Origin: a virus
Direction: 5' to 3' (one strand)
DNA length: 64,000 nt
IMG/VR virus record: IMGVR_UViG_3300031669_005140
Positions 916-59,634 of the stretch are shown here, piece after piece. How positions within the stretch are numbered: position 1 is the stretch's first letter; every line of letters begins with the position of its first letter. The notes beneath the pieces were generated by a model that was not told the DNA's origin, did not search any database, and saw nothing but the letters and a program-made list of their open reading frames with translations. Made by a program: the position numbers and the translations under genes.

Positions 916-1033
916 TGATGGGAGCAGGACTCGAACCTGCACTTGTCGGCTCTACCTCGAAATAGCTTAATGGAGTGCTACTCCATACCCCGACACAGGT
1001 GACTGTTGCGTCTACCAATTTCGCCATCCCATC
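916..1033 (-). ncRNA. tRNA-like RNA (Leu-type D arm, aberrant anticodon arm, expanded variable region)
   Basis: Minus strand: acceptor GATGGGA/TCCCATC, D arm TGGCGAAATTGGTAGACGC, T arm GCAGG-TTCGAGT-CCTGC. The anticodon stem ACAG/CTGT closes only a 4-nt loop, and there is an insert of ~55 nt. Confidence 0.7.
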
Positions 1034-3693: not shown

Positions 3694-3840
3694 TCATGAT
3701 ATCGGTTCTATTGGCATCCAGTGCGTAATTGATTGCCCAAAAAATGAATCGGGGCCAAACATTTACCATTTATAAAACGGAGCGTAAAACCCATTCATCG
3801 CCCTTGGCGTGGGTGGGTAGTTAACTTCAATCCAACTCAT
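3694..3840 (-). pseudogene. DUF551-like gene disrupted by a mini-IS and an in-frame stop
   Basis: Frame reads MSWIEV...KW*MFGPDSFFGQSITHWMPIEPIS*. The M-x-WI start and THWMP end are typical of DUF551. Confidence 0.6.
3774..3825 (+). mobile_element. non-autonomous mini IS200/IS605 derivative (PATE-like, fused left and right ends)
   Basis: 3' part CATCGCCCTTGGCGTGGGTGGGTAGTTAAC nearly matches the tnpB element right end; 5' part GGAGCGTAAAACCCA resembles its left end; preceded by TTAT. Confidence 0.7.
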
Positions 3841-5315: not shown

Positions 5316-5337
5316 CGATAAAAACTATTTATCGACT

Positions 5338-5474
5338 GTTGACATTTTAGGAGTGTCTTCGGGAAGAATTTTTGCTTAACACTCAAAATTACCCAGCGGA
5401 ATATCATAACTTATTTAACCAAAAATTTGCACGGGCTAGAAAGCGTTTTGAAGAGCAATGATCAATTACAGTTG
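5338..5474 (+). repeat. ~135-bp direct repeat of 60356-60492 (gene fragment)
   Basis: Near-identical GAAGAATTTTTGCTTAACACTCAAAATTACCCAGCGG...GAAGAGCAATGATCAAT. Confidence 0.9.
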
Positions 5475-5556: not shown

Positions 5557-5603
5557 TAGTATTGTGTAGTTCAATTTGGTGAACTGTATTTATAAACTAG
5601 TTA
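5557..5603 (-). repeat. attI-like terminal site, copy 1 (near-identical to 8155-8200)
   Basis: Plus strand TAGTATTGTGTAGTTC...GTGAACTGT...TATAAACTAG|TTA. Confidence 0.75.
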
Positions 5604-6053
5604 GCTGCAAGCACTAATTATGTGCTTCGATTAAACTTTCTCCTTCATCATCACCATAAAAAAATTCGCAGAAAGAAAGTGAATTACTACCGTCATCATA
5701 AGCCTGTTCATTTATCCAGTCTTTAAATGTTTTTCTTTGCACGTCTCCTATATCACTTTCTCCCCACCCCTCTTTACTTCCATCGGGAGCTATAAAAAAG
5801 GATTGGTAACTATTCACATCACTTTCAATTATAGTTGAAGTTCTGCTTTTAAATATTTGAGTTGCTTTTTCGTGAGCCTTTTTTATTAACTCATCATTCC
5901 AGCTTGTTACAGCTATTGCGTGGTGTCTTATATATCCCATTTTTTTATTATTTAAGTGTTTCAAATTAAGTTACTGCTAAATTTACCGTGCCAGCAGCTA
6001 ACACGTTGTATAATTCATTGCGAAAAGCAACGAAATCATACAACCATTCGTTA
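5600..6053 (-). mobile_element. gene cassette A with upstream attC-like hairpin
   Basis: Ends GTTAGCTGCAAGCAC (5600) and GTGCCAGCAGCTAAC (to 6002) are 13/15 complementary; hairpin at 5999-6053. Confidence 0.75.
5614..5964 (-). CDS. hypothetical cassette-borne protein
   Basis: 116-aa ORF (probable start MGYIRHHAI) with APDGSKEGW motif. Confidence 0.7.
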   Translation of the reverse strand: MKHLNNKKMGYIRHHAIAVTSWNDELIKKAHEKATQIFKSRTSTIIESDVNSYQSFFIAPDGSKEGWGESDIGDVQRKTFKDWINEQAYDDGSNSLSFCEFFYGDDEGESLIEAHN

Positions 6054-7525: not shown

Positions 7526-8154
7526 AGTCTGTATAAACCCTTAGTTTTCCTTCGTGATCGATAATGTAGGTTTCACTACAATCTGGACAGAAGATAGTCT
7601 CTCCATCGGCTATTAACTCACAGCCACAGTTCGTGCAGATGTATACCCTTAACTCTCCGGCTAAATCCTTAGTTCTTCCCATGTCTAAAAGTTTTTTAAT
7701 TTCTGAATGTATTGCTAACCATGCACAGGCTTCCACCTCTTCTCGCTCTGAGGCATCCTTGATGTAGTCAAAATTATACGGGGGCAACGACAGGTAATAC
7801 TTCCTCACTTTCGATAATATGGCTAACGCTTTCCGGTAGTTCGAGTTCTTCATAGATCATTCGTTTTATGTTATCCAATGTTAATCCAAATTCTATTATG
7901 GCCTCTTCGCTTAGGTTGTTCCCAGCATACATGCTCATCTGGTCGCTATGCTTCTTTATTCGCTCAATGTGGAACTTATCTGCAAAATTATACTTGTTCT
8001 GCATTCCGAGATTAACCTCTATCTCCCTAGATACCTCGTTGATTACTTCGGCCAGCTGGTATACGAGATGAATCTTTTTCTTCACCACCTCTGCAATAGC
8101 CAACTTCTGCTCCTTGGTTAGTTTTACTTTTTTTGTCATCGTTCCTTGTGTTTT

Positions 8155-8200
8155 AGTATTGTGTAGTTCGAATTAGTGAACTGTGCATATAAACTAGTTA
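8155..8200 (-). repeat. attI-like terminal site, copy 2
   Basis: Plus strand TAGTATTGTGTAGTTCGAATTAGTGAACTGTGCATATAAACTAG|TTA. Confidence 0.75.
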
Positions 8201-8209
8201 GCACCAATT

Positions 8210-8518
8210 TTAAGGAAGCAACTCGCATTCACGAACTCCCCACCATTGGTCAAAATCCCACTTAAACTCTTTCCAGTATTCAGGGTCGTTTTCTTCATCT
8301 AATTTTCGCATTTCATCCCACTGCTTTTGCTTTTCAGCTTTGTGAAATTCCATTGCCATTTCAGCTCCTTTATTTGTTTTGTGAATACTTATAGTAGCTG
8401 CTGCACTTTCGCAACAATCTGAATTATAAAGAAATTCATAAACAAATACTGGTGCTAACACAGGCTCAACCGCAATAGCGGGTTCTGTGGTTTGCGAAGT
8501 GTTCTGCTCTTTATTCAT
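8210..8518 (-). CDS. hypothetical cassette protein C (starts inside the hairpin loop)
   Basis: MNKEQNTSQTTEPAIAVEPVLAPV...; ATG at 8518 in the AT-rich loop. Confidence 0.7.
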   Translation of the reverse strand: MNKEQNTSQTTEPAIAVEPVLAPVFVYEFLYNSDCCESAAATISIHKTNKGAEMAMEFHKAEKQKQWDEMRKLDEENDPEYWKEFKWDFDQWWGVRECELLP

Positions 8519-8577
8519 ATTAGTTAAAATTGATAAGTTACTACTTTTTAATCCGCTACATGCGGTTACACTCACCG

Positions 8578-8862
8578 TTATGCACGATGAGAAGAACGTC
8601 TATCTTCAAGTCCGTGCTTCCATTTATGAACAGCTCTTAGTTTTGATAAATCGGTAACTTTTTCAAAGTAATCGTATGGTTCAGTCATACATCCACCTTT
8701 GCATTTAACTGTCATTACTTTATCCCGGCACTCCATTACTTGCATGGCTTCTTTGCACTGTGTAGGGGCAAAACCTTTCGCTGATGAGAGGATGAATAAA
8801 TCATCTTGCATAACACTATCTATAGTGCATGGCTGTTTGGTATTTGAAGTTTCGTTTTTCAT
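8578..8862 (-). CDS. hypothetical cassette protein D
   Basis: Starts in the hairpin loop; its stop TAA is part of the TAAC core. Confidence 0.7.
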   Translation of the reverse strand: MKNETSNTKQPCTIDSVMQDDLFILSSAKGFAPTQCKEAMQVMECRDKVMTVKCKGGCMTEPYDYFEKVTDLSKLRAVHKWKHGLEDRRSSHRA

Positions 8863-8938
8863 GTCAATATTTGTTTAAATTTGTAAATATGTAGCTTTTA
8901 TAAGGCAGCCACGTCACCATAGATTCAACGTAATAATG

Positions 8939-9151
8939 CTAATTACTTTTAGGTTTAATTTCTTTTAGGCTATCTCTCATCAAATATTTCGCTTCCAAAA
9001 GTAGTTTCCTATAAAGAATATATGCGTGTCTTGCTTGCATACCGCCTTTAACTTCATGCAAATCACTTATTCTGTCTGTCAATAGTCTTTCAATTTCATC
9101 TACTACCTCAAAGAAATCTTTAATTTTTTCGTTTTCAATTTTGTATTCCAT
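8939..9151 (-). CDS. hypothetical cassette protein E
   Basis: 70-aa ORF between degenerate cores. Confidence 0.65.
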   Translation of the reverse strand: MEYKIENEKIKDFFEVVDEIERLLTDRISDLHEVKGGMQARHAYILYRKLLLEAKYLMRDSLKEIKPKSN

Positions 9152-9811
9152 TTTATTTCAAATTTTAGTTATTAAATCCGTAGTATTACTACTAATACAC
9201 TCGTCCGTTATTTATTGTTTCTATTTGCTATGGCCCAACCATTTCTTATATTTTTCGTTAGTGTGCCTAGCCCTAAACTCCCTATCTACATCCTTACCGT
9301 ACTTCTTCATCATGGTATGAATGCTTCGTAAAGGAAATGTTCTAAACGTAGAATACTCGTACCTTTGACTCACTCCTTCTGCATCATCCTTTAGCACAAC
9401 CCTATACCAGATTACGTGAATCATGTCGTTCTCTCTATGCACTACAGCCACATCATCATAGGCCACCATGAACCGAGAATAGATTTCGGCCAATCGTCTC
9501 AGCCTCTCTAGCATCTGCCGCTGCTTTGTTGTCGTCATTCTTTCTTTCCTTTATGTAATGTTTCAAATATTTCAGCCTATCTAAATATTCCTTAAATGTA
9601 GGATAGTTATGCTTATCAGAATTTCTCCAACGAGAATAGGCATATATGGTAGATTTTCCAAGAACCACTTTTTCGCAATCATCGTTCAGCCATTCTATAA
9701 ACTGCTCTGGATTATCCAGCCCCATTCCAAACATTGTGGCGTAATCTGAAGGATCAAACTGGTTTTTATCTGGATTACGGTTCGGATAGTCAACCTCAAA
9801 TACTACTCCCT

Positions 9812-10059: not shown

Positions 10060-10677
10060 TTAGTTAAACACATCGTATCCAAAAGGAGTCTCCAGCAGTG
10101 AGGCATAATCCCTGCCGCATAAAGAAACATCATCTGTGACCTTATAAACGGCCTTTATGTATGGTTCAAAGAACGTCTTAGGCTTACCGTTTGCTCCAAC
10201 TACTGCATAGCCATCCTCTATCCGCTCCATCTGCCTATGGGCAATAAGTGCCTTAAATTTCTTTCCTTTAAACGATTTTAGTTGCTCCAGCTGTGCCTCA
10301 TCGAAGCAGCAAGTATAAGGTAGAAACCATGACTGTCCTAGTGAAGATGTAGACACCTTGGCTTCATAGTGCTTCAACTCAAGCATCTCGAAGCTAAGTC
10401 GGTTATTGTAAACTCGTCTGTAGAACTCATACACAGGAGGTAGCTGAATTTTTATGGTCATGGTAAGTTTATTGTCTCTACTAACCTCACCTTTTACCGA
10501 ATAAACCTTTACCTCGTGAATGCCCATTGGGGTGATCGGCTTCTTTTCAAATCCCCAACGAGGATAGGCAATGGTGGTAAATCCCCAACGAGGATAGGTA
10601 ATGGTGGTAAGCAACCGTTCCTGGTCTTTGGTTAAAAAACCTGCGTAATCTTCTGCTATTAAGGACTCCTTATTCAT
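10060..10677 (-). CDS. hypothetical protein with an internal 10-aa tandem duplication
   Basis: 205-aa ORF containing TTITYPRWGF-TTIAYPRWGF. Confidence 0.6.
   Translation of the reverse strand: MNKESLIAEDYAGFLTKDQERLLTTITYPRWGFTTIAYPRWGFEKKPITPMGIHEVKVYSVKGEVSRDNKLTMTIKIQLPPVYEFYRRVYNNRLSFEMLELKHYEAKVSTSSLGQSWFLPYTCCFDEAQLEQLKSFKGKKFKALIAHRQMERIEDGYAVVGANGKPKTFFEPYIKAVYKVTDDVSLCGRDYASLLETPFGYDVFN
10549..10608 (+). repeat. 30-bp tandem duplication
   Basis: AAATCCCCAACGAGGATAGG(C/T)AATGGTGGT x2. Confidence 0.9.
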
Positions 10678-10978: not shown

Positions 10979-12279
10979 GTGAACTACCCACCCACGCCAA
11001 AGGCGATGGGATTGGCTTCATGGGTCAAAGCTCCTTCTAATGAAGGCAACATACCATGATTTTTATGTGTATGTTCCGTACACAATTTATTTAATGCGAA
11101 ATTTTTAATATTTATGGAAGCATTCACATCCCTATCGAGAACAGAATCGCACTTAGGACAAGTCCATTCACGGTCTTTGAGTGTTAGTTCGTTATTGATA
11201 TACCCACAACAATTACATGTTTTAGAGCTTGGCTCAAATCTTCCAATCCTTAGAATGTTTACACCGTTCCATTTTGCCTTATATTCAAGCATGGTAACGA
11301 ATGTTCCCCAAGATACGTCAGAAATTGAACCAGCTAAACAATGGTTTTTTAGCATTCCATTTATATTTAGGTCTTCCAAAGCAATAGATTGGTTCTCTCT
11401 TATTAACTCTGTACTGACCTTATGCAAAAAGTCTTTTTTTTGGTTAGCTACTTTTTCGTGTAATATGGCTAACCTGTGTTTACGTTTATTTGATTTATTT
11501 TTTGAAAACTGTCGTTGTTGGTATTTTAAACGTTCTATTGATTTACGTAAGTATTTTGGATTGTCGTATTCTTTACCATTTGAGGAAACAAGAAATGATT
11601 TAATTCCTAAATCTAACCCAACCGTTGTTTCTTCATTAACTGGATTTGGTTGTTTTTCTACCTCGCCTGTTTCGCAAAGAATAGAAACAAAGTATTTGCC
11701 TGTTGGCGTTCTGCTAATTGTAGCCTGTCTTATTTCGCCTTTAAACGGTCTATGCAAAACAACATTAATCCCCTTTTTGAATTTTGGGATAATCAGTTTA
11801 TCGTTATCAATGTTAATACTTTGTGGAATATTGAAAGATTGCTTGCCCTTACCTTTCTTTTTAAATTTAGGAAAGTCGTTTTGTGCCTTAAAAAACGCAG
11901 TGTATGCTTTATCTAAGTTTGTTATTGATTGTTGCAATGACTGGCTGTTTACTTCTTTTAGCCATTCATGCTCATTTTTAAGATTGGTTAATCTTTTATG
12001 TAATGCGAAGCAAGAATGGTTTGTTTTATCTTTAGCGTATTCGGATTGTTTAAAAGCTAAAGCATTGTTATATACAAAACGAGCGCAACCAATATGTTTA
12101 TTGATTAACTCAGCTTGTGATGCTGTTGGTATTATTCTATATCGAAACGCTTTTAACATATTGCAAATATACAAAATTTACAGAAACAAACTCATTTATT
12201 TAAAAAGATTATTAACTTTGCATTGGGTCGCATTCATCCCACCCACCCTTCGAGATAAGTGGGCTTTCGCTCCCATTTC
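10979..12279 (-). mobile_element. IS200/IS605-family element, tnpB only (IS1341-like)
   Basis: tnpB with subterminal hairpins; the left end follows TTAC (12280-12283) and the right end terminates ...GGGTAGTTCAC. Confidence 0.8.
10984..12159 (-). CDS. tnpB: RNA-guided endonuclease TnpB
   Basis: HTH MLKAFRYRI, RuvC I GLDLGIK, RuvC II IALEDLN, zinc finger CNCCG...CPKC, RuvC III DRDVNAS; start follows the TATATTTG promoter element at 12164-12171. Confidence 0.95.
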   Translation of the reverse strand: MLKAFRYRIIPTASQAELINKHIGCARFVYNNALAFKQSEYAKDKTNHSCFALHKRLTNLKNEHEWLKEVNSQSLQQSITNLDKAYTAFFKAQNDFPKFKKKGKGKQSFNIPQSINIDNDKLIIPKFKKGINVVLHRPFKGEIRQATISRTPTGKYFVSILCETGEVEKQPNPVNEETTVGLDLGIKSFLVSSNGKEYDNPKYLRKSIERLKYQQRQFSKNKSNKRKHRLAILHEKVANQKKDFLHKVSTELIRENQSIALEDLNINGMLKNHCLAGSISDVSWGTFVTMLEYKAKWNGVNILRIGRFEPSSKTCNCCGYINNELTLKDREWTCPKCDSVLDRDVNASINIKNFALNKLCTEHTHKNHGMLPSLEGALTHEANPIAFGVGG

Positions 12280-13304: not shown

Positions 13305-13674
13305 CGTTTTAAAATTTAACTATACATGACACGTCTTAATCTAACAATGCTTTAGGAATATAGTATTCTACAATAGCATAATCCTCATAGGATATACTCT
13401 GGACATAGTCTTCACTTACAACCAACTCTAGGACAATATTTTCCTCAATCCATCTGCCCTGTGTTTCGGAGTCTACGCTAAACGAATAGAGATGACCAAC
13501 TTTATTGAGCACAACACCATACTCAAACATCTCAAACCTAACCGTTATTATGCCGTGTGAGGACATGGTTACTGTTTGTGAATCGACTATTAGTCCGTTG
13601 CGTGTAGTCTCAGCCATAGCATTTAATTTAGTAGTTCAAAATAAGGAAAAATTTTTGACATATCCAAATCATTT

Positions 13675-13781
13675 GTCAAAAACTGGTTAAAATAATTGGA
13701 CTGCATCTATCAACTAGGTTATCAAACATACATGGACAACATGGACAGTCAAGATTAACACTGTGTTTATAAACGAGTTAT
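13675..13781. repeat. 107-bp direct repeat (copy at 19568-19674) containing tandem attI-like sites next to a promoter
   Basis: GTCAAAAACTGGTTAAAATAATTGGACTGCATCTATCAACTAGGTTATC...CTGTGTTTATAAACGAGTTAT with 3 mismatches between copies. Confidence 0.9.
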
Positions 13782-13993
13782 TGGCAATGCTTTACAAACT
13801 CAACACTGCCGTCTTCTTTCCATTTAAAAACACCTACACTACTTTTCGGTCTGTTCTTATAAAACAGTCCTGTCTTTTTTAGCAGTGTTTGAAACAAATT
13901 TAATCTATCGTAAGGGTCGCATCCAATAATGTAGCGATTTGCACTGCCCATAATAACAGGTATAGTGCATTGTTCTTTCTTTGTATCGACCAT
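13778..13993 (-). CDS. hypothetical cassette protein F
   Basis: Start in the hairpin loop (MVDTKKEQCTIPVIMGSA); stop within the TAAC core. Confidence 0.65.
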   Translation of the reverse strand: MVDTKKEQCTIPVIMGSANRYIIGCDPYDRLNLFQTLLKKTGLFYKNRPKSSVGVFKWKEDGSVEFVKHCQ

Positions 13994-14068
13994 TTGTCTT
14001 AATTTTAAAGTTAATCTCTTTTATCAAGGTCGGTGTTCAACGCACCATACCCAAACCGTTATGCGCAA

Positions 14069-14305
14069 TTAGTACTCAACTGCGCATTCACCATTACAAT
14101 AATCATACATAAAGTTTGCATGCTCTGTATTTGCTTCTTTCTTTAATTCTTTAATGTTCGTTTCTATGTAGTCGTATAAAGGCTTATCAAGTTTTTCTTT
14201 TATATTAAACCACAACCAAGTAAAATAACTTGGACTTTTCTTTCTGACTTCTTCATAAGTTAAGCCTTTATACTTACCAAATCTAAATGTTTCTGGTCTA
14301 CTCAT
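14069..14305 (-). CDS. DUF3820/ExoX C-terminal-like (FGKYKG) protein
   Basis: FRFGKYKGLTYEEV...PSYFTWL motif. Confidence 0.7.
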   Translation of the reverse strand: MSRPETFRFGKYKGLTYEEVRKKSPSYFTWLWFNIKEKLDKPLYDYIETNIKELKKEANTEHANFMYDYCNGECAVEY

Positions 14306-14368
14306 AGCACTTTAACGTTTTATAACAGCACATTGTTTTAATTAAAACGACAACAACTCTTCCAATCA

Positions 14369-15310
14369 TTAACCGATTATGTCCTTGGCAATCAGAACCG
14401 CCTGCTTAAAATCTCCAGCACATTCTAATATAGCCAATACTGCAAACGGTGTATAGGAGTGCCCTGCTTCGAAAGGATAGGCATTTGGCGACCACACGTA
14501 AAAGATGTTCTCTCCACACACCCCCAGAGTTGCGCTGTGACCTTCGCTCTTACCTGGACGTGCAAGCCTATTTTCTGTTATGAACTTCCAGCCGTGGCTA
14601 ACAAGTAAGTTTCTAAGATACTCAGCAACTCCATTCCACGCATTAAACTGATCCCCTATCCTATCACCAACGATTACGTTATCACTTGCTTCTCTCTTCT
14701 TGAACACAATTGGCTGCTCTTCTATCTCCGTTAGCGACTTACAGTAACTTATAAGTTTCATCCGAACTTCTACTGGAATAGTTTTAATATCCAGCATGGA
14801 GCCACGTAGGTTAACATAACCGGAGGTAGGTGGTATAACTGCAATTCCTCGTTCCCCCCTTGTCTCTAAAATAGCCTCTGCGTTGTAGTCCTTGCGCTTA
14901 ACGTTGTAGTCCAGAATGTTTTTCCTCATGCACAACTTCTGATTTCGCTCAATAAAGGCACAGCGATAAATGAGGTGATAACCTCCACTCCTTGTCTTGT
15001 TTACCGTAAAGAGTTTGAAGTCATCACCCATATGATTCCTAATCTTGTTGATGAATATTTTTGCATCCCTGAATTTATTGTCAATATCCACTATTTCTAG
15101 GTTTCCACTTACCTTACCACAAACTACACATAGGCCGTGATAGTTAGTATCGAAAACTGAGAGTGGTGCTTGCTCTGTGATATACTTAGTCCATTCAAGG
15201 ATGGGTAGTTTTCTTCTACTTGTTGGGAGAATATTCAGGCCAGCAGCATTGTATTGCCGTATTAAGTCTAGGTTATAAACTGGATTATCAACGCCGTGGC
15301 CTGTTTCCAT
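14369..15310 (-). CDS. bifunctional primase-polymerase (Prim-Pol) domain protein
   Basis: GLNILP..KLP..W, VCGKVSGNLEIVDID, TRSGGYHLIY, ETRGERG...PPT motifs. Confidence 0.85.
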   Translation of the reverse strand: METGHGVDNPVYNLDLIRQYNAAGLNILPTSRRKLPILEWTKYITEQAPLSVFDTNYHGLCVVCGKVSGNLEIVDIDNKFRDAKIFINKIRNHMGDDFKLFTVNKTRSGGYHLIYRCAFIERNQKLCMRKNILDYNVKRKDYNAEAILETRGERGIAVIPPTSGYVNLRGSMLDIKTIPVEVRMKLISYCKSLTEIEEQPIVFKKREASDNVIVGDRIGDQFNAWNGVAEYLRNLLVSHGWKFITENRLARPGKSEGHSATLGVCGENIFYVWSPNAYPFEAGHSYTPFAVLAILECAGDFKQAVLIAKDIIG

Positions 15311-19529: not shown

Positions 19530-19575
19530 CAATGTTAATGCTTATTATTTACTTGTGCAAATCGTTCGTCAAAAA
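19530..19575 (-). promoter_or_regulatory. TTTTGACGAACG-type promoter
   Basis: 12-mer, then TTTG, then TAACATTG 25 nt downstream of the motif; near-identical module at 60741-60826. Confidence 0.65.
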
Positions 19576-19669
19576 CTGGTTAAAATAATTGGACTGCATC
19601 TATCAACTAGGTTATCAAACATACCTAGACAACATGGACAGTCCAGATTAACACTGTGTTTATAAACGA

Positions 19670-20412
19670 GTTATAAGCCATTTTAAAAATAGCGACGTTC
19701 ATTGCGTTTAGCTCTTTGACATTGTGGTTTTGCCCAGCTATCTTGCCATTCTGATTTTTTACCATATTTACGGTGCAAAGTTGCCATTTCAGGTAAATTA
19801 TCAGAACAAATATAATCCCAGATGTCATGCCAAACGAAATTGAATAATTTGTCTTTGTTTGGCTTGTATTCAAAAGCATCAGCATGTATAATTGTTAATC
19901 GCTCATCATTAAAATATGGTGCTACCAACTTTATAACATCTTCGCTTTTTTCAATCACAGTTATTTCAGTAATTTCAGGCTTATCTAATAGCACTTTAAC
20001 AACGCAACCAATACCAAGTCCGTTAATTAAAACAGAACCTTTTGCTTTGCGTGTAAAGTGGCTAAAATCACTAATCTCATCAGGGGTATTACTCATTACA
20101 ACCGTTCCGCTTCTTTTTAATCTTTTATACGTTCCTTCGGGTACGGCTCTACCAGTTTTAAGCATTGAAATCATTTGGCTAAAATCTTTTTTTTGAACTG
20201 TAAATGTTTCAACGCTCCAATCTCCAGATTTCCCATCTACTAAAAATGACATATCTACATTCATAAGTTTTGAATAAAAAACGGCTTATAACCCGTGGTA
20301 TAGTTAATTGCCGTGTTAGTACTAATTTGAAGCGTTACCACCCGCTTGTAATTCTGTGTAAATTGATAGGTAGGGAGCCCGCAATCGGCAACTAACCATA
20401 CCACCAACGTTA
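19670..20412 (-). mobile_element. gene cassette H with attC-like hairpin at 20289-20412
   Basis: Ends GTTATAAGCCATTTT/AAAACGGCTTATAAC (14/15); arms GTGGTATAGTTAATTGCCG/CGGCAACTAACCATACCAC. Confidence 0.8.
19683..20264 (-). CDS. class I SAM-dependent methyltransferase / spermidine synthase-like protein
   Basis: VLINGLGIG, ITVIEKS, IIHADAF and HDIW Rossmann motifs. Confidence 0.8.
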   Translation of the reverse strand: MNVDMSFLVDGKSGDWSVETFTVQKKDFSQMISMLKTGRAVPEGTYKRLKRSGTVVMSNTPDEISDFSHFTRKAKGSVLINGLGIGCVVKVLLDKPEITEITVIEKSEDVIKLVAPYFNDERLTIIHADAFEYKPNKDKLFNFVWHDIWDYICSDNLPEMATLHRKYGKKSEWQDSWAKPQCQRAKRNERRYF

Positions 20413-24274: not shown

Positions 24275-24946
24275 ATGGATTTTTCAAGATGTCTTTATGA
24301 CCCTAGCGACGATAGGTTGCTGTCAAAAATTCTAAAAAACAATATTCTGTCGGATGAGTTCGGAACAGACTGGGGAGATGCCGAACCGTTTAAGGAAAAG
24401 ATTTGCCGATATATAGTGCTCATGTATGATTACTATTCCCCCACTCGGTTAGAGTTTAGGGATTACTGGAATAGGAAGTTGGAGTGTGCTTTTTTAGCGG
24501 GGTTTGATTTAGATGCTAAGACAGGAGAGTTACCTAAACCCATAGAGGATGTTTTAACTGCCAATAACGACGCTGCATTTGCCGCTATAACAAAGTATAT
24601 GCTCGTTACTGGTGGAATGGACTATATGGTTTTGTGGGGCTATATTATTCAACTGGCACTTATTACCAAGAGGGCATTCAACGGTAAGAGCAATACGAAA
24701 GATATTGCCGATTCCATTACGCTGAGAAAGCAGATAGATGAGCTAACATCTAAGTTGTTCGGGGGAGACGAGGAGACTGAGAAAGGAAAGCAGCTGCTTT
24801 ACATACAGATTGCTTCTCGCTCAAGTATTAGACCAGAAGCCTTTGCCAAGAGAGTAGGAGAAGGTGATGACCTTAGTGATTGTAACCCTTATGGTGAGTA
24901 TGAAGTGAAGCCATTAACGTTCCTTGGAGATGAAGAGCCAAAGTAA
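24275..24946 (+). CDS. hypothetical protein, possible terminase small subunit
   Basis: Helical ORF overlapping the start of terL. Confidence 0.45.
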   Translation: MDFSRCLYDPSDDRLLSKILKNNILSDEFGTDWGDAEPFKEKICRYIVLMYDYYSPTRLEFRDYWNRKLECAFLAGFDLDAKTGELPKPIEDVLTANNDAAFAAITKYMLVTGGMDYMVLWGYIIQLALITKRAFNGKSNTKDIADSITLRKQIDELTSKLFGGDEETEKGKQLLYIQIASRSSIRPEAFAKRVGEGDDLSDCNPYGEYEVKPLTFLGDEEPK

Positions 24947-27245
24947 GTATAAATATCTTGAAGCCGATAAATACTTTGTTCTTAACGACAGGGATACATA
25001 CCTGGTTCCAATTTACATATCGTTGCCAAAGCCTCCACCGTTGGAGATGATTGCCGGATATGGGCTTGCGCCAGAAGATCAGGTATTCAAAAGAATGGTG
25101 GTTCCAAAAAAGTTACAGTCTTTAGAAAAGCAAGTAATAGCAGAGTTATCGCAGAAGTCGGATGAGATTTCTTCATACTCTGTTTCTGGATACAAGATCA
25201 TCAAAGAATTTTGGGTTAGGTTTAACAAGAATAGTTCACTCCTGAAGGAAGAAGCGGAGTTTATTAAGCATTTTTGGTGGCATAGAATACATGGGTATTG
25301 GTTCTTTAACAATGGAAAACCAACATACATCACCGGAAGGTATTTTGAATATCTAAATACGTGGTATATGCCCGATGTTAAGAATGGATACCCAGAGTAT
25401 CGGGATAGGGATAGACGGTGGTTCTTGGCTGATAAATACTTCTTTGAAACGGAGGAGACCTTTGCTGAATTAGATGCCAACAATAAGGCTATGAAGGATA
25501 ATTCAGGAAAGTATAAGATGACATATACTGGAAGGAAGTTATACTTGGGCATCGAAAATACTAAGGGTAGGCGAATGGGTGACACCAATAAGTCACTATG
25601 TTGCTCTCACTCCATGCTAACTACTGGCCTTTCACGATATGCTTCCATAACATCATATACCAGCGATCATGCAGAGGGTTCGTTTACGAAGATGCTTGTT
25701 CCTGCTTGGCAGAATATGTATCTGTGGTTAAAGCCAATATTCTCAAACACCAATACTCCATCTACGCTTGAATACTCATCTCCAGGTAACGTTTTCAACG
25801 AGCAAGCACTTGGTGCTACGTTTGACTATGCCAGAACAGCTCAGGGTTCTTACTACGATGGAAAGAAAATAAATGCTGCTATTGTTTGTGACGAGGAAGG
25901 AAAGAGCAAGGAGTTTGACGTGGCCAAACGCTGGGATCAAATTGCTGAGTGTTTGGTTCAGGGAGTGAACAGGGTTGGTTTCTCTTATCATCCAACTACA
26001 GTAGAGGACATGGATGAAGGAGGTGGTAGCAACTTTGAAAAGATGATGGAGCAGGGTGATTTTTATGTGAGGAAGCAGTCTGGGGAAACGCTAAACAGGC
26101 TGGCTCGAATATACTTTAGAGCCTCCGATGGACTGGAGGGATTCATTGATAAGTATGGGAACTCCGTTGAGTTTGACTTAACGGATAGTCAGCGGAAAGA
26201 AGGGTTTAAAAATGGAGCATATAACTATCTTGTTAGTCAGAGAGATGTATTTGAAAAGCAAGGGACACCGGAGGCCATTGAGCGACTACGTGCATTAAAG
26301 AGAAAGTTTCCTATTGAGTATCTTGATTCGTTTATTGGAGAGAGCGGAGCACTGGGATGGGATATCAAGAAGATTGATGCTGCAATAAAGAGAATAAAGG
26401 CAACACACAAGCCTAAACGTTATAGGCTATTCAGGGACGTTTTACACGATACCGTAAGGGCAGCAGAGGATAACGAGAACGGAAGATTTGTGCTCGACTA
26501 TATTCTTCCAGATAATATGGCTGGTAAAAAGATACTTGACTCTGTTTATGACGAGATAAAAAATGAAACCGTTGATGCATGGACTCCAATGTATCCTGGT
26601 AAGTTTCTGTTATCCGTAGACCCTGTTGGATTCACTAATAAGACACAGAAAGAGCTAGATAGAAATCAGAGCAAGTATTCGAAAGGAGCCGCCGAGGTCT
26701 TTTGGACTAACGATGTTCGCCACTATAACGAAGATCAAGAAAAGAACAAAAACAACTTTTCAGGGATTACATCTATTGCCCACTACCTATATCGTCCTGC
26801 GGGAATGGATGAATTTGTGGAGGATATGCTTATGCTGGCTGAATACTATGGGGCAATGATATGCCCTGAGTCCAACAAGGAGGTGTTTACCAAGGAAGTG
26901 TTTAATCGAGGATATTCTGGGTATTTCTACTATGAGTTAGACCCAATAACAAAGAAGCGTAAGTCCATGCCTGGAGTGTATACTGGTTCGAACAAAAAGG
27001 AGATGATTATGTATGTGAACGATTACATAAAGCATCGTTCTGAGTATGATTGCAACCTAGAGTTCTGGCTCCAAGCAAAGAGGATGAAAACAATAGAGGA
27101 GATGACTTCATACGATACGGTTGCTGCTTATGCGGTTGGATTAATGGGGCTTTTAGGCATGAAGGGTGGCTATCTGGATGTTGTTAATAGTGAACGAACG
27201 AATGCTCTTAATGCTACAGATTTCTTGGATGAGCTATATTTTTAG
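24924..27245 (+). CDS. terL: terminase large subunit
   Basis: GYWFFNNG.PTYITG, Walker A KGRRMGDT, Walker B CDEEGK, nuclease SVDP and CPESN; crAss-like type. Confidence 0.9.
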   Translation: MEMKSQSKYKYLEADKYFVLNDRDTYLVPIYISLPKPPPLEMIAGYGLAPEDQVFKRMVVPKKLQSLEKQVIAELSQKSDEISSYSVSGYKIIKEFWVRFNKNSSLLKEEAEFIKHFWWHRIHGYWFFNNGKPTYITGRYFEYLNTWYMPDVKNGYPEYRDRDRRWFLADKYFFETEETFAELDANNKAMKDNSGKYKMTYTGRKLYLGIENTKGRRMGDTNKSLCCSHSMLTTGLSRYASITSYTSDHAEGSFTKMLVPAWQNMYLWLKPIFSNTNTPSTLEYSSPGNVFNEQALGATFDYARTAQGSYYDGKKINAAIVCDEEGKSKEFDVAKRWDQIAECLVQGVNRVGFSYHPTTVEDMDEGGGSNFEKMMEQGDFYVRKQSGETLNRLARIYFRASDGLEGFIDKYGNSVEFDLTDSQRKEGFKNGAYNYLVSQRDVFEKQGTPEAIERLRALKRKFPIEYLDSFIGESGALGWDIKKIDAAIKRIKATHKPKRYRLFRDVLHDTVRAAEDNENGRFVLDYILPDNMAGKKILDSVYDEIKNETVDAWTPMYPGKFLLSVDPVGFTNKTQKELDRNQSKYSKGAAEVFWTNDVRHYNEDQEKNKNNFSGITSIAHYLYRPAGMDEFVEDMLMLAEYYGAMICPESNKEVFTKEVFNRGYSGYFYYELDPITKKRKSMPGVYTGSNKKEMIMYVNDYIKHRSEYDCNLEFWLQAKRMKTIEEMTSYDTVAAYAVGLMGLLGMKGGYLDVVNSERTNALNATDFLDELYF

Positions 27246-59367: not shown

Positions 59368-59418
59368 CAGGATGATCTATAACGAAAAGTGTAAACACCG
59401 TTTTAAAACTAAATAAAT

Positions 59419-59634
59419 ATGGAAAAAGAAAGAGGAATAACAATTACAAATGTTGATAAAAGCACCGATAAAAATGGTGTTTCACATAGTGTTACCAAAC
59501 GTAAGTATTGGTATCGTGATGATATTGAAGTATGCGTGCTATGTGGTAAAGAAACTCACAATAAGGAACGAGTTTACAATGAAAGTGAGAAAGGAACATT
59601 TTGGAAAGAAGGTGCTTGTTGGGAACATTTTTGA
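59419..59634 (+). CDS. small zinc-ribbon protein
   Basis: YWY...CVLCG...C.EH. Confidence 0.65.
   Translation: MEKERGITITNVDKSTDKNGVSHSVTKRKYWYRDDIEVCVLCGKETHNKERVYNESEKGTFWKEGACWEHF

Follow-up and report, generated by a model that had tools for sequence, protein, structure and literature searches.

Integron-like cassettes are very probably present in the large phage of Bacteroidota type described here, with genes that run opposite to those of a classical integron and with a hairpin that heads the gene and often supplies its start. The phage is represented by a 64,000-nt window, the whole stretch of DNA that was analysed, in which the arrays holding cassettes C, D and F lie on the minus strand. 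Its hosts are presumably Bacteroidota bacteria. Besides a terminase large subunit (24924-27245, phrog_6681), whose closest relatives are those of Flavobacterium elemo podophages (25%), the window encodes polymerase exonuclease and processivity subunits and an ORF of 2488 aa. At the thresholds used, neither the C-D region nor the array-linked recombinase described below matched cultured GenBank phages. A scan of genome contigs returned one genuine copy, on a 3.3-kb Lutibacter MAG contig, the other matches being due to chance.

In the explanation we propose, a cassette would consist of a hairpin, a gene and a short end that can pair with the flank following GTTA. A short XerA-like recombinase, such as is encoded at the end of related arrays, would act on the better-folding coding strand, with crossover at AA|C on the hairpin's 5' side, and the mRNA would accordingly carry the hairpin ahead of the gene. 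A Bacteroidota ribosome, making no Shine-Dalgarno (SD) pairing, would need an unstructured A-rich start; the stem would block an ATG at the core while the A-rich loop of about 60 nt would stay open, so that about 60% of cassettes would start in the loop and have their right arm translated as a disordered leader of 14-25 aa, selected for its frame and not for its sequence. The remaining cassettes would use an ATG of their own 13-60 nt past the core. Routine shuffling would carry leader and gene as one, and a rarer exchange at G|TT, through recombination of the opposite strand or homologous exchange between similar cores, would re-pair hairpin heads with bodies, the new pairs surviving where the frame matches or gets repaired.

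Hairpin sites and the genes they head

Hairpins bounded by TAAC and GTTA lie at 8456-8580 (C), 8811-8933 (D), 13951-14061 (F) and 20289-20412 (H) on the minus strand and at 59380-59494, 60487-60570 and 61507-61630 (J) on the plus strand. As in attC sites, the AAC and GTT triplets pair at the base of an imperfect palindrome. Hairpin C, which heads cassette C, runs from TAAC (8580-8577) through its arms and an A-rich loop to the G|TTA core (8459-8456). In hairpins D and F one of the two cores has decayed, D reading TTAC for TAAC on the left, with GTTA at 8814-8811, and F reading ATTA (13954-13951). Taken singly, the window hairpins give modest folding z-scores (-0.9 to -2.7 on the coding strand), and Rfam and ARAGORN returned no match on the hairpins; in related loci our own detector finds 372 hairpins per Mb versus 3.6 per Mb in shuffled sequences. 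The coding strand gives the more stable fold in 73 of 78 hairpins and carries an A-rich loop in 162 of 170 long ones; the loop is about 60 nt long. The central spacer is asymmetric, with about 5 nt in the 5' arm and 2 nt in the 3' arm (mostly 5/2, 4/1, 5/3 and 4/2). Few of 125 sites fit the attC cores RYYYAAC (16) or GTTRRRY (15), and the consensus here is TAAC and GTTA with cassette-specific extensions; given these deviant cores and the spacer asymmetry, the strand rules of IntI may not apply. A stop codon lies within TAAC in 43 of 115 modules. Hairpin length falls between 110 and 130 nt in 178 of 267 hairpins over all loci and across unrelated sequence families, a tight constraint, and a second length class of about 70-90 nt seldom holds a start codon.

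ORF C (8210-8518, minus strand) encodes 102 aa, comprising a leader (8459-8518) made of the loop ATG at 8518 and 19 codons from the loop and right arm, predicted to be disordered, and a conserved domain of about 78 aa and unknown function that is also found leaderless. The ATG lies 59 nt before the core G at 8459, and the domain begins four codons past the core with no ATG between. ORF D (8578-8862, minus strand, 94 aa) starts at a loop ATG (8862) 48 nt before the core G at 8814, has a hairpin leader of 16 codons and ends in a TAA that is also the TAA of hairpin C's TAAC. ORF F (13778-13993, minus strand, 71 aa) takes its hairpin leader from a loop ATG at 13993 and has its stop codon in the TAAC of a terminal site. 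A fourth loop-start gene, of 71 aa on the plus strand (59419-59634, loop ATG 59419, hairpin 59380-59494), has the top start-context score in the window. The original prediction was that C, D and F start in the hairpin loop and read through the right arm and the GTTA core with similar leaders. All three frames are indeed stop-free from the loop ATG through the right arm into the gene, the core being GTTA in C and D but decayed to ATTA in F. The likeness of the leaders holds for D and F, in which GTT is read as a Val codon, but not for C, where the core G is the third codon base and the leader thus belongs to another hairpin family and frame. No Pfam or NCBIfam family was found for C, D, F or the gene at 59419, and a fold search with C was uninformative (Z of 4.4 at best).

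Starts in the window are not confined to the loop: the gene at 60587-60727, behind the shorter hairpin at 60487-60570 (plus strand), starts past the core and is a counter-example. In hairpin J, the loop ATG at 61568 has the same -59 offset and frame as in C and opens an ORF of 25 codons that runs to 61645; the ATG of gene J (61658-61876, plus strand) follows 12 nt later, so that the 25-aa leader predicted just ahead of this gene is confirmed. Since the body of gene J has its own start, its leader ends after 25 codons; J most likely combines a head of the leader type with a body that starts by itself, and the upstream ORF (uORF) is probably a by-product, which could still help by melting the stem, by analogy with what has been proposed for attC short ORFs (PMC8876359). 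As a general device such leader peptides fared badly, a loop ORF ending near the gene start being found in 6 of 26 downstream-start modules and mostly in poor start context. Gene H (19683-20264, minus strand; a weak aminopropyl-/methyltransferase-like match) has its own ATG 28 nt past the core. The ATGA overlap predicted at 20261-20264 is there, but we rejected the frame crossing the hairpin as a coupled leader: it is open for 82 codons without an ATG, the loop offers none in frame, and a near-identical hairpin in the related locus L001 stops the frame at the core. The crossing frame looks coincidental. H-type hairpins have a true loop start in L021 and none in the window, and 22 loci with H homologs hold ordinary genes that start where H does.

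In about eight related loci (L008, L009, L002, L020, L043, L071, L085 and L147) a whole gene, of 57-247 aa, sits inside the hairpin loop. In L008 (4956-5240) and at the same coordinates in L009 this gene is a leaderless C homolog, and the hairpin flanks differ on both sides. ORF E (8939-9151, minus strand, in the region 8939-9211) lies behind a left arm (9182-9211) of this gene-in-loop family; the right arm has decayed and the fold is lost, and the left core of D is damaged at the same spot (8930-9211). We infer that ORF E is a decayed gene-in-loop hairpin, and as a guess one deletion may have fused its right arm and the left core of D. In L004 and L005 (5001-5260) a C homolog with its own ATG has no upstream hairpin but does have a cassette-type 3' end and a following hairpin, and looks like a half-made or half-lost cassette.

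The whole array at 13680-14370 (an E-like gene at 14069-14305, hairpin F, ORF F and terminal sites) is absent from a related phage in run X10, the joint being covered by at least 255 nt on each side. The same run has one copy of a 30-nt unit that is tandemly duplicated in frame in the window (10549-10608, within ORF 10060-10677). Other elements of the window include an IS605-family TnpB/OrfB gene (10984-12174, minus strand; PF01385, PF07282 and PF12323), whose element has a 31-nt end with a second copy at 3796-3826; one contig of run X2 skips 11002-12254, on weak evidence (depth 7, 24 nt on one side). A 146-nt repeat (94%) at 5329-5474 and 60347-60492 corresponds to the 3' end of ORF 60189-60479, and its left-arm copy runs against local transcription. 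An Rfam tRNA match at 916-1033 (minus strand, 118 nt, 40.3 bits), for which ARAGORN makes no call, overlaps a 51-aa ORF.

Probable start codons within the loop

The hairpin family of C was gathered by its right arm only, a pattern that carries no information on the loop, and gave 49 distinct copies with a recognisable left arm. C-type matches whose left arm was missed by the pattern (for example L016, L019-L022 and L035) were left out of the 49; those inspected also have an in-frame ATG, except the unrelated GC-rich L025. All 49 copies have an in-frame loop ATG at -53 to -68 from the core, which in 35 of them is at -59 as in the window. From -47 to the arm, in-frame stops occur in none of the 49, and in the other two frames in 11 and 27. 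Between ATG and arm the length changes in two copies (+3 and -9), both times by a multiple of three, while upstream of the ATG it changes in 15, 14 of which are not multiples of three. Codon-position entropy over the leader (1.03/0.94/1.09) gave no sign of selection at the amino-acid level in this family. The leader residues vary freely, suggesting that the start and the frame are under selection and the peptide is not.

In modules outside the C family, the start lies in the loop in 46 of 78 cases, 3.5 times the 13 expected after shuffling the loops, and downstream in the other 32. A comparable ORF is found on the coding strand of 99 of the 170 long hairpins versus 19 on the opposite strand. 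In an independent set of 80 loci chosen by their recombinase only, 71 modules start in the loop and 46 downstream; for 47 of the 71 no alternative in-frame ATG lies within 45 nt of the core. Loop starts carry A at -13/-12/-6/-3 with frequencies of 0.83/0.89/0.67/0.70 and an SD-like motif in 1 of 46. Profiling and reporters in Flavobacterium johnsoniae have tied initiation to A at -3, -6, -12 and -13, no SD and low structure (PMC6847099), and the loop starts have the features given there for the Bacteroidota initiation region. With a start-score matrix trained on 42 of the phage's ordinary genes, we obtained a median of 6.8 for loop ATGs, somewhat inflated because the best-scoring loop ATG was picked, and of 2.6 for ordinary genes; in-frame ATGs at or after the core scored -4.9 and out-of-frame loop ATGs -2.9. 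In the folded mRNA the predicted unpaired fraction is 0.73 for the loop start versus 0.23 for a core start (C, 0.69 vs 0.22; D, 0.65 vs 0.35; F, 0.56 vs 0.19). As far as sequence can tell, these data support the original proposal that the recombination site doubles as a translation-initiation module, which it would do in about 60% of long-hairpin cassettes.

Could the leaders instead be annotation artefacts, with the genes starting at or just after the core and the frame upstream kept open by A-rich loops? In-frame codons at the core (GTG in C, ATG in D and F) formally allow a start there, the leader sequence is unconserved, and 25 of 90 C homologs are leaderless. However, the constancy of the loop ATG in the C family, the avoidance of stops, the confinement of indels after the ATG to multiples of three and the excess of loop starts over shuffled loops all speak against an artefact, as do the paired, low-scoring state of the core codons and the D and F homologs in which the core Met is replaced by other residues while the loop ATG is kept. 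We give this explanation scarcely any weight.

It is also very unlikely that the leaders are functional, as a degron or an export or localisation tag, or that they are regulatory coupling uORFs as in J and H. Right-arm peptides do recur on unrelated proteins, but which residues recur follows from the pairing of the DNA with the left arm and the loop part varies freely, and in the model of C the pLDDT exceeds 90 in the domain but is about 50 over residues 1-20. With regard to coupling, short ORFs in attC that relieve a hairpin block have been described (PMC8876359), and the uORF of J is intact, in fair start context, in L153; this locus, however, the single relative recovered, is almost identical to J and therefore no test of conservation, H is without an ATG, and the coupling geometry is uncommon and mostly in poor context.

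We favour selection for start and frame, with the leader itself an add-on. Among the 90 C homologs, 25 are leaderless and begin at the domain, 24 have a C-type leader, 11 a different leader at the same junction and 29 other N-termini; leaderless homologs occur outside cassettes. Together with the low pLDDT of the first residues this points to a disordered add-on encoded by the hairpin, which in the model is dispensable for the fold of C. The original prediction had named homologs lacking the leader as evidence against translation from the loop. Many homologs do lack it, but they are free-standing copies with their own ATG, which marks the leader as an add-on and does not show that it is untranslated.

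Cassette movement, leader swaps and the linked recombinase

Where genes at least 90% identical occur in a changed context, the hairpin upstream stays the same and the one downstream differs (15 of 15 pairs). All 13 informative gene clusters keep the upstream hairpin, with the reverse seen in none, a count biased by the fetching of many loci with the right arm of C; recombinase-anchored loci, an unbiased but small sample, agree (4 of 4 clusters, 5 pairs). Since the upstream hairpin is always kept, the inverted polarity is supported, and the hairpin travels with the downstream gene as had been proposed. Identity between relocated near-identical genes starts and ends at AAC. Together with the co-travel this would place the common crossover at AA|C, upstream of the ATG, and make exchange at G|TT the rarer and older event. 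The flank after GTTA is complementary to the 3' end of the same gene (10/10 in C, where the cassette end with a non-hairpin, attI-like terminal site lies at 8186-8206 on the minus strand; 14/15 in H), and compensating changes in this pairing are found among D homologs. Such complementarity is what one would predict for a circular intermediate that has to rebuild the stem, and it fits either polarity. Neither a circular cassette nor a C/D deletion joint was seen in the runs, which consist of contigs only, so that this proves nothing.

Complementary ends had led us at first to read the arrays with canonical polarity, in which the hairpin belongs to the upstream cassette, crossover falls at G|TT and every shuffle fuses a gene to a new leader; we dropped this when the upstream hairpin was found to stay with gene C in L001-L003. 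Canonical polarity accounts equally well for the complementary ends, and it agrees with the way heads and bodies are combined, many to many, precisely at GTT and with near-identical H hairpins heading different genes in the window and in L001. Against it, the relocated genes in all 15 + 5 pairs keep their upstream hairpin, the signature in which upstream differs and downstream is the same was never seen, and three leader frames are in use, so that routine shuffling at G|TT would often break genes. On these comparisons canonical polarity appears largely refuted already, and we consider it highly improbable.

Under the inverted polarity, the pairing of heads and bodies would reflect occasional swaps. 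The C-type hairpin heads 30 gene clusters in 46 modules, and one leader is thereby found on unrelated domains, which the original prediction had suggested looking for. F-type right arms head four unrelated proteins (six loci), and C, D and F are each found under several different leaders. The same body occurs under two leaders in L026 and L011 versus L148 (84%) and, across frames, in L085 versus L149 and L131 (69%), here with a one-base compensating shift just past the core. The three leader frames are used 27, 6 and 13 times in the non-C set and 54, 5 and 12 times in the recombinase-chosen set. The rarest, with G as second codon base (L021, L067, L081, L104, L139 and L009), is found mostly in long ORFs, which by eye look like DNA methyltransferases; L067 and L104 have different bodies behind a common leader. 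Leader swaps at G|TT are real but older and rarer than the co-travel of hairpin and gene. The N-terminal fusions that the hairpins had been suspected of creating thus exist, but ordinary shuffling would not make them, as crossover at AA|C precedes the ATG.

Scanned for tyrosine-recombinase motifs, the window gave no match. In L020, a recombinase of 268 aa (412-1218; PF13495 and PF00589) directly follows the last cassette. Its best match is to the XerA-like family NF040815, with 152 bits to the integron-integrase model TIGR02249 (cut-off 265), and it is without the IntI insertion, a stretch of 31 residues standing at the place that takes up 79 in VchIntI4. Among 54 relatives whose flanks are long enough, 52 have hairpins on the upstream side (287 hairpins upstream and 5 downstream), and the recombinase is co-oriented in 125 of 126 cases. 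In most loci a conserved, non-hairpin, AT-rich site led by TAAC precedes the recombinase ATG by about 30-55 nt. The window has repeated array-terminal sequences that begin at TAAC (5557-5610, 8154-8207, 13651-13788, 19544-19681 and 60732-60826), some of them doubled; by eye they resemble the pre-recombinase site of related phages, and no recombinase follows them in the window. Read away from the enzyme, the arrangement appears to be an intI-attI-attC layout with the genes inverted, and the linkage suggests that the XerA-like enzyme acts on these hairpin sites. Ending in such an enzyme, the related arrays are integron-like, not a classical integron.

A further idea, which we regard as possible but on balance doubtful, is that the leader-bearing hairpin serves as a gene-capture device, its less-used strand recombining at G|TT-like sites near the 5' ends of ordinary genes. 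Equally tentatively, a ready-made start and leader joined in this way to a start-less phage or host gene body might create expressible cassettes and N-termini that did not exist before. ORF C fits capture in that its leader is joined no more than four codons from the starting point of 25 free-standing homologs, and other C copies fit it in lying wholly inside a hairpin loop or in having a downstream cassette end only.

Relation to known systems

Phage-borne CALINs with attC arrays have already been published, two sites from Polaribacter phage P12002L having been tested (Qi et al. 2023, PMC9892861), as have single cases of starts or fusions supplied by a site (PMC8876359). The sites described here resemble integron attC in being imperfect palindromes bounded by AAC and GTT, with one strand that folds better and apparently an unpaired central spacer and a variable loop; in attC the recombined bottom strand is the better-folding one, through G:T pairs (PMC5027507). 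As in integron and CALIN arrays, there is one small gene per unit, a frequent stop in TAAC and, on phages, no recombinase nearby. Unlike attC, which lies downstream of its own gene, these sites travel with the downstream gene, so that the genes are reversed and the hairpin heads its gene, with the start codon and leader inside the site. Their cores seldom fit the attC consensus and are accompanied instead by cassette-specific complementary ends of 8-11 nt. Recombinase-less hairpin clusters are present as in CALINs, but their sites depart from attC in core and polarity; the term 'start codon' has no match in the text of PMC9892861. Unlike in an integron, the linked 268-aa enzyme is XerA-like, is without the IntI insertion and lies co-oriented with and downstream of the genes.

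In class 1 integrons, attC stems hinder translation of the next gene, and translation aids include ORF-11 in attI1, attC short ORFs and the gcuF1-blaOXA-28 fusion (PMC8876359). These are alike in that a site or neighbouring cassette gives a start, coupling or an N-terminal fusion to a poorly initiating gene, but they are single cases that depend on SD and on cassette position, whereas the phage cassettes appear to have a built-in, frame-selected start in their own hairpin, in most long-hairpin cassettes and across many families. Synthetic protein-coding attC sites have been engineered for IntI1 (Nivina et al. 2020, as cited in PMC8618304); they likewise set an attC-type structure within an ORF, but the present sites are natural and differ in enzyme and polarity. 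A literature search, thin on subscription papers, turned up no account of gene starts located within attC-like loops as a system.

If ribosomes do initiate in the loop, the recombination site would, under selection, also serve as the entry point for ribosomes and encode the first segment of its cargo, and would be a new solution to the block that attC stems place on translation. This would explain the odd N-termini that are very common in Bacteroidota phage proteins and that can mislead homology searches and annotation. The array-linked recombinase of 268 aa is a candidate compact, structure-specific tool with sites readable as protein. Occasional re-attachment of hairpins to unrelated genes may be one way in which new cassettes arise, offering a testable route for the origin of gene cassettes, which PMC8618304 counts among the field's open questions.
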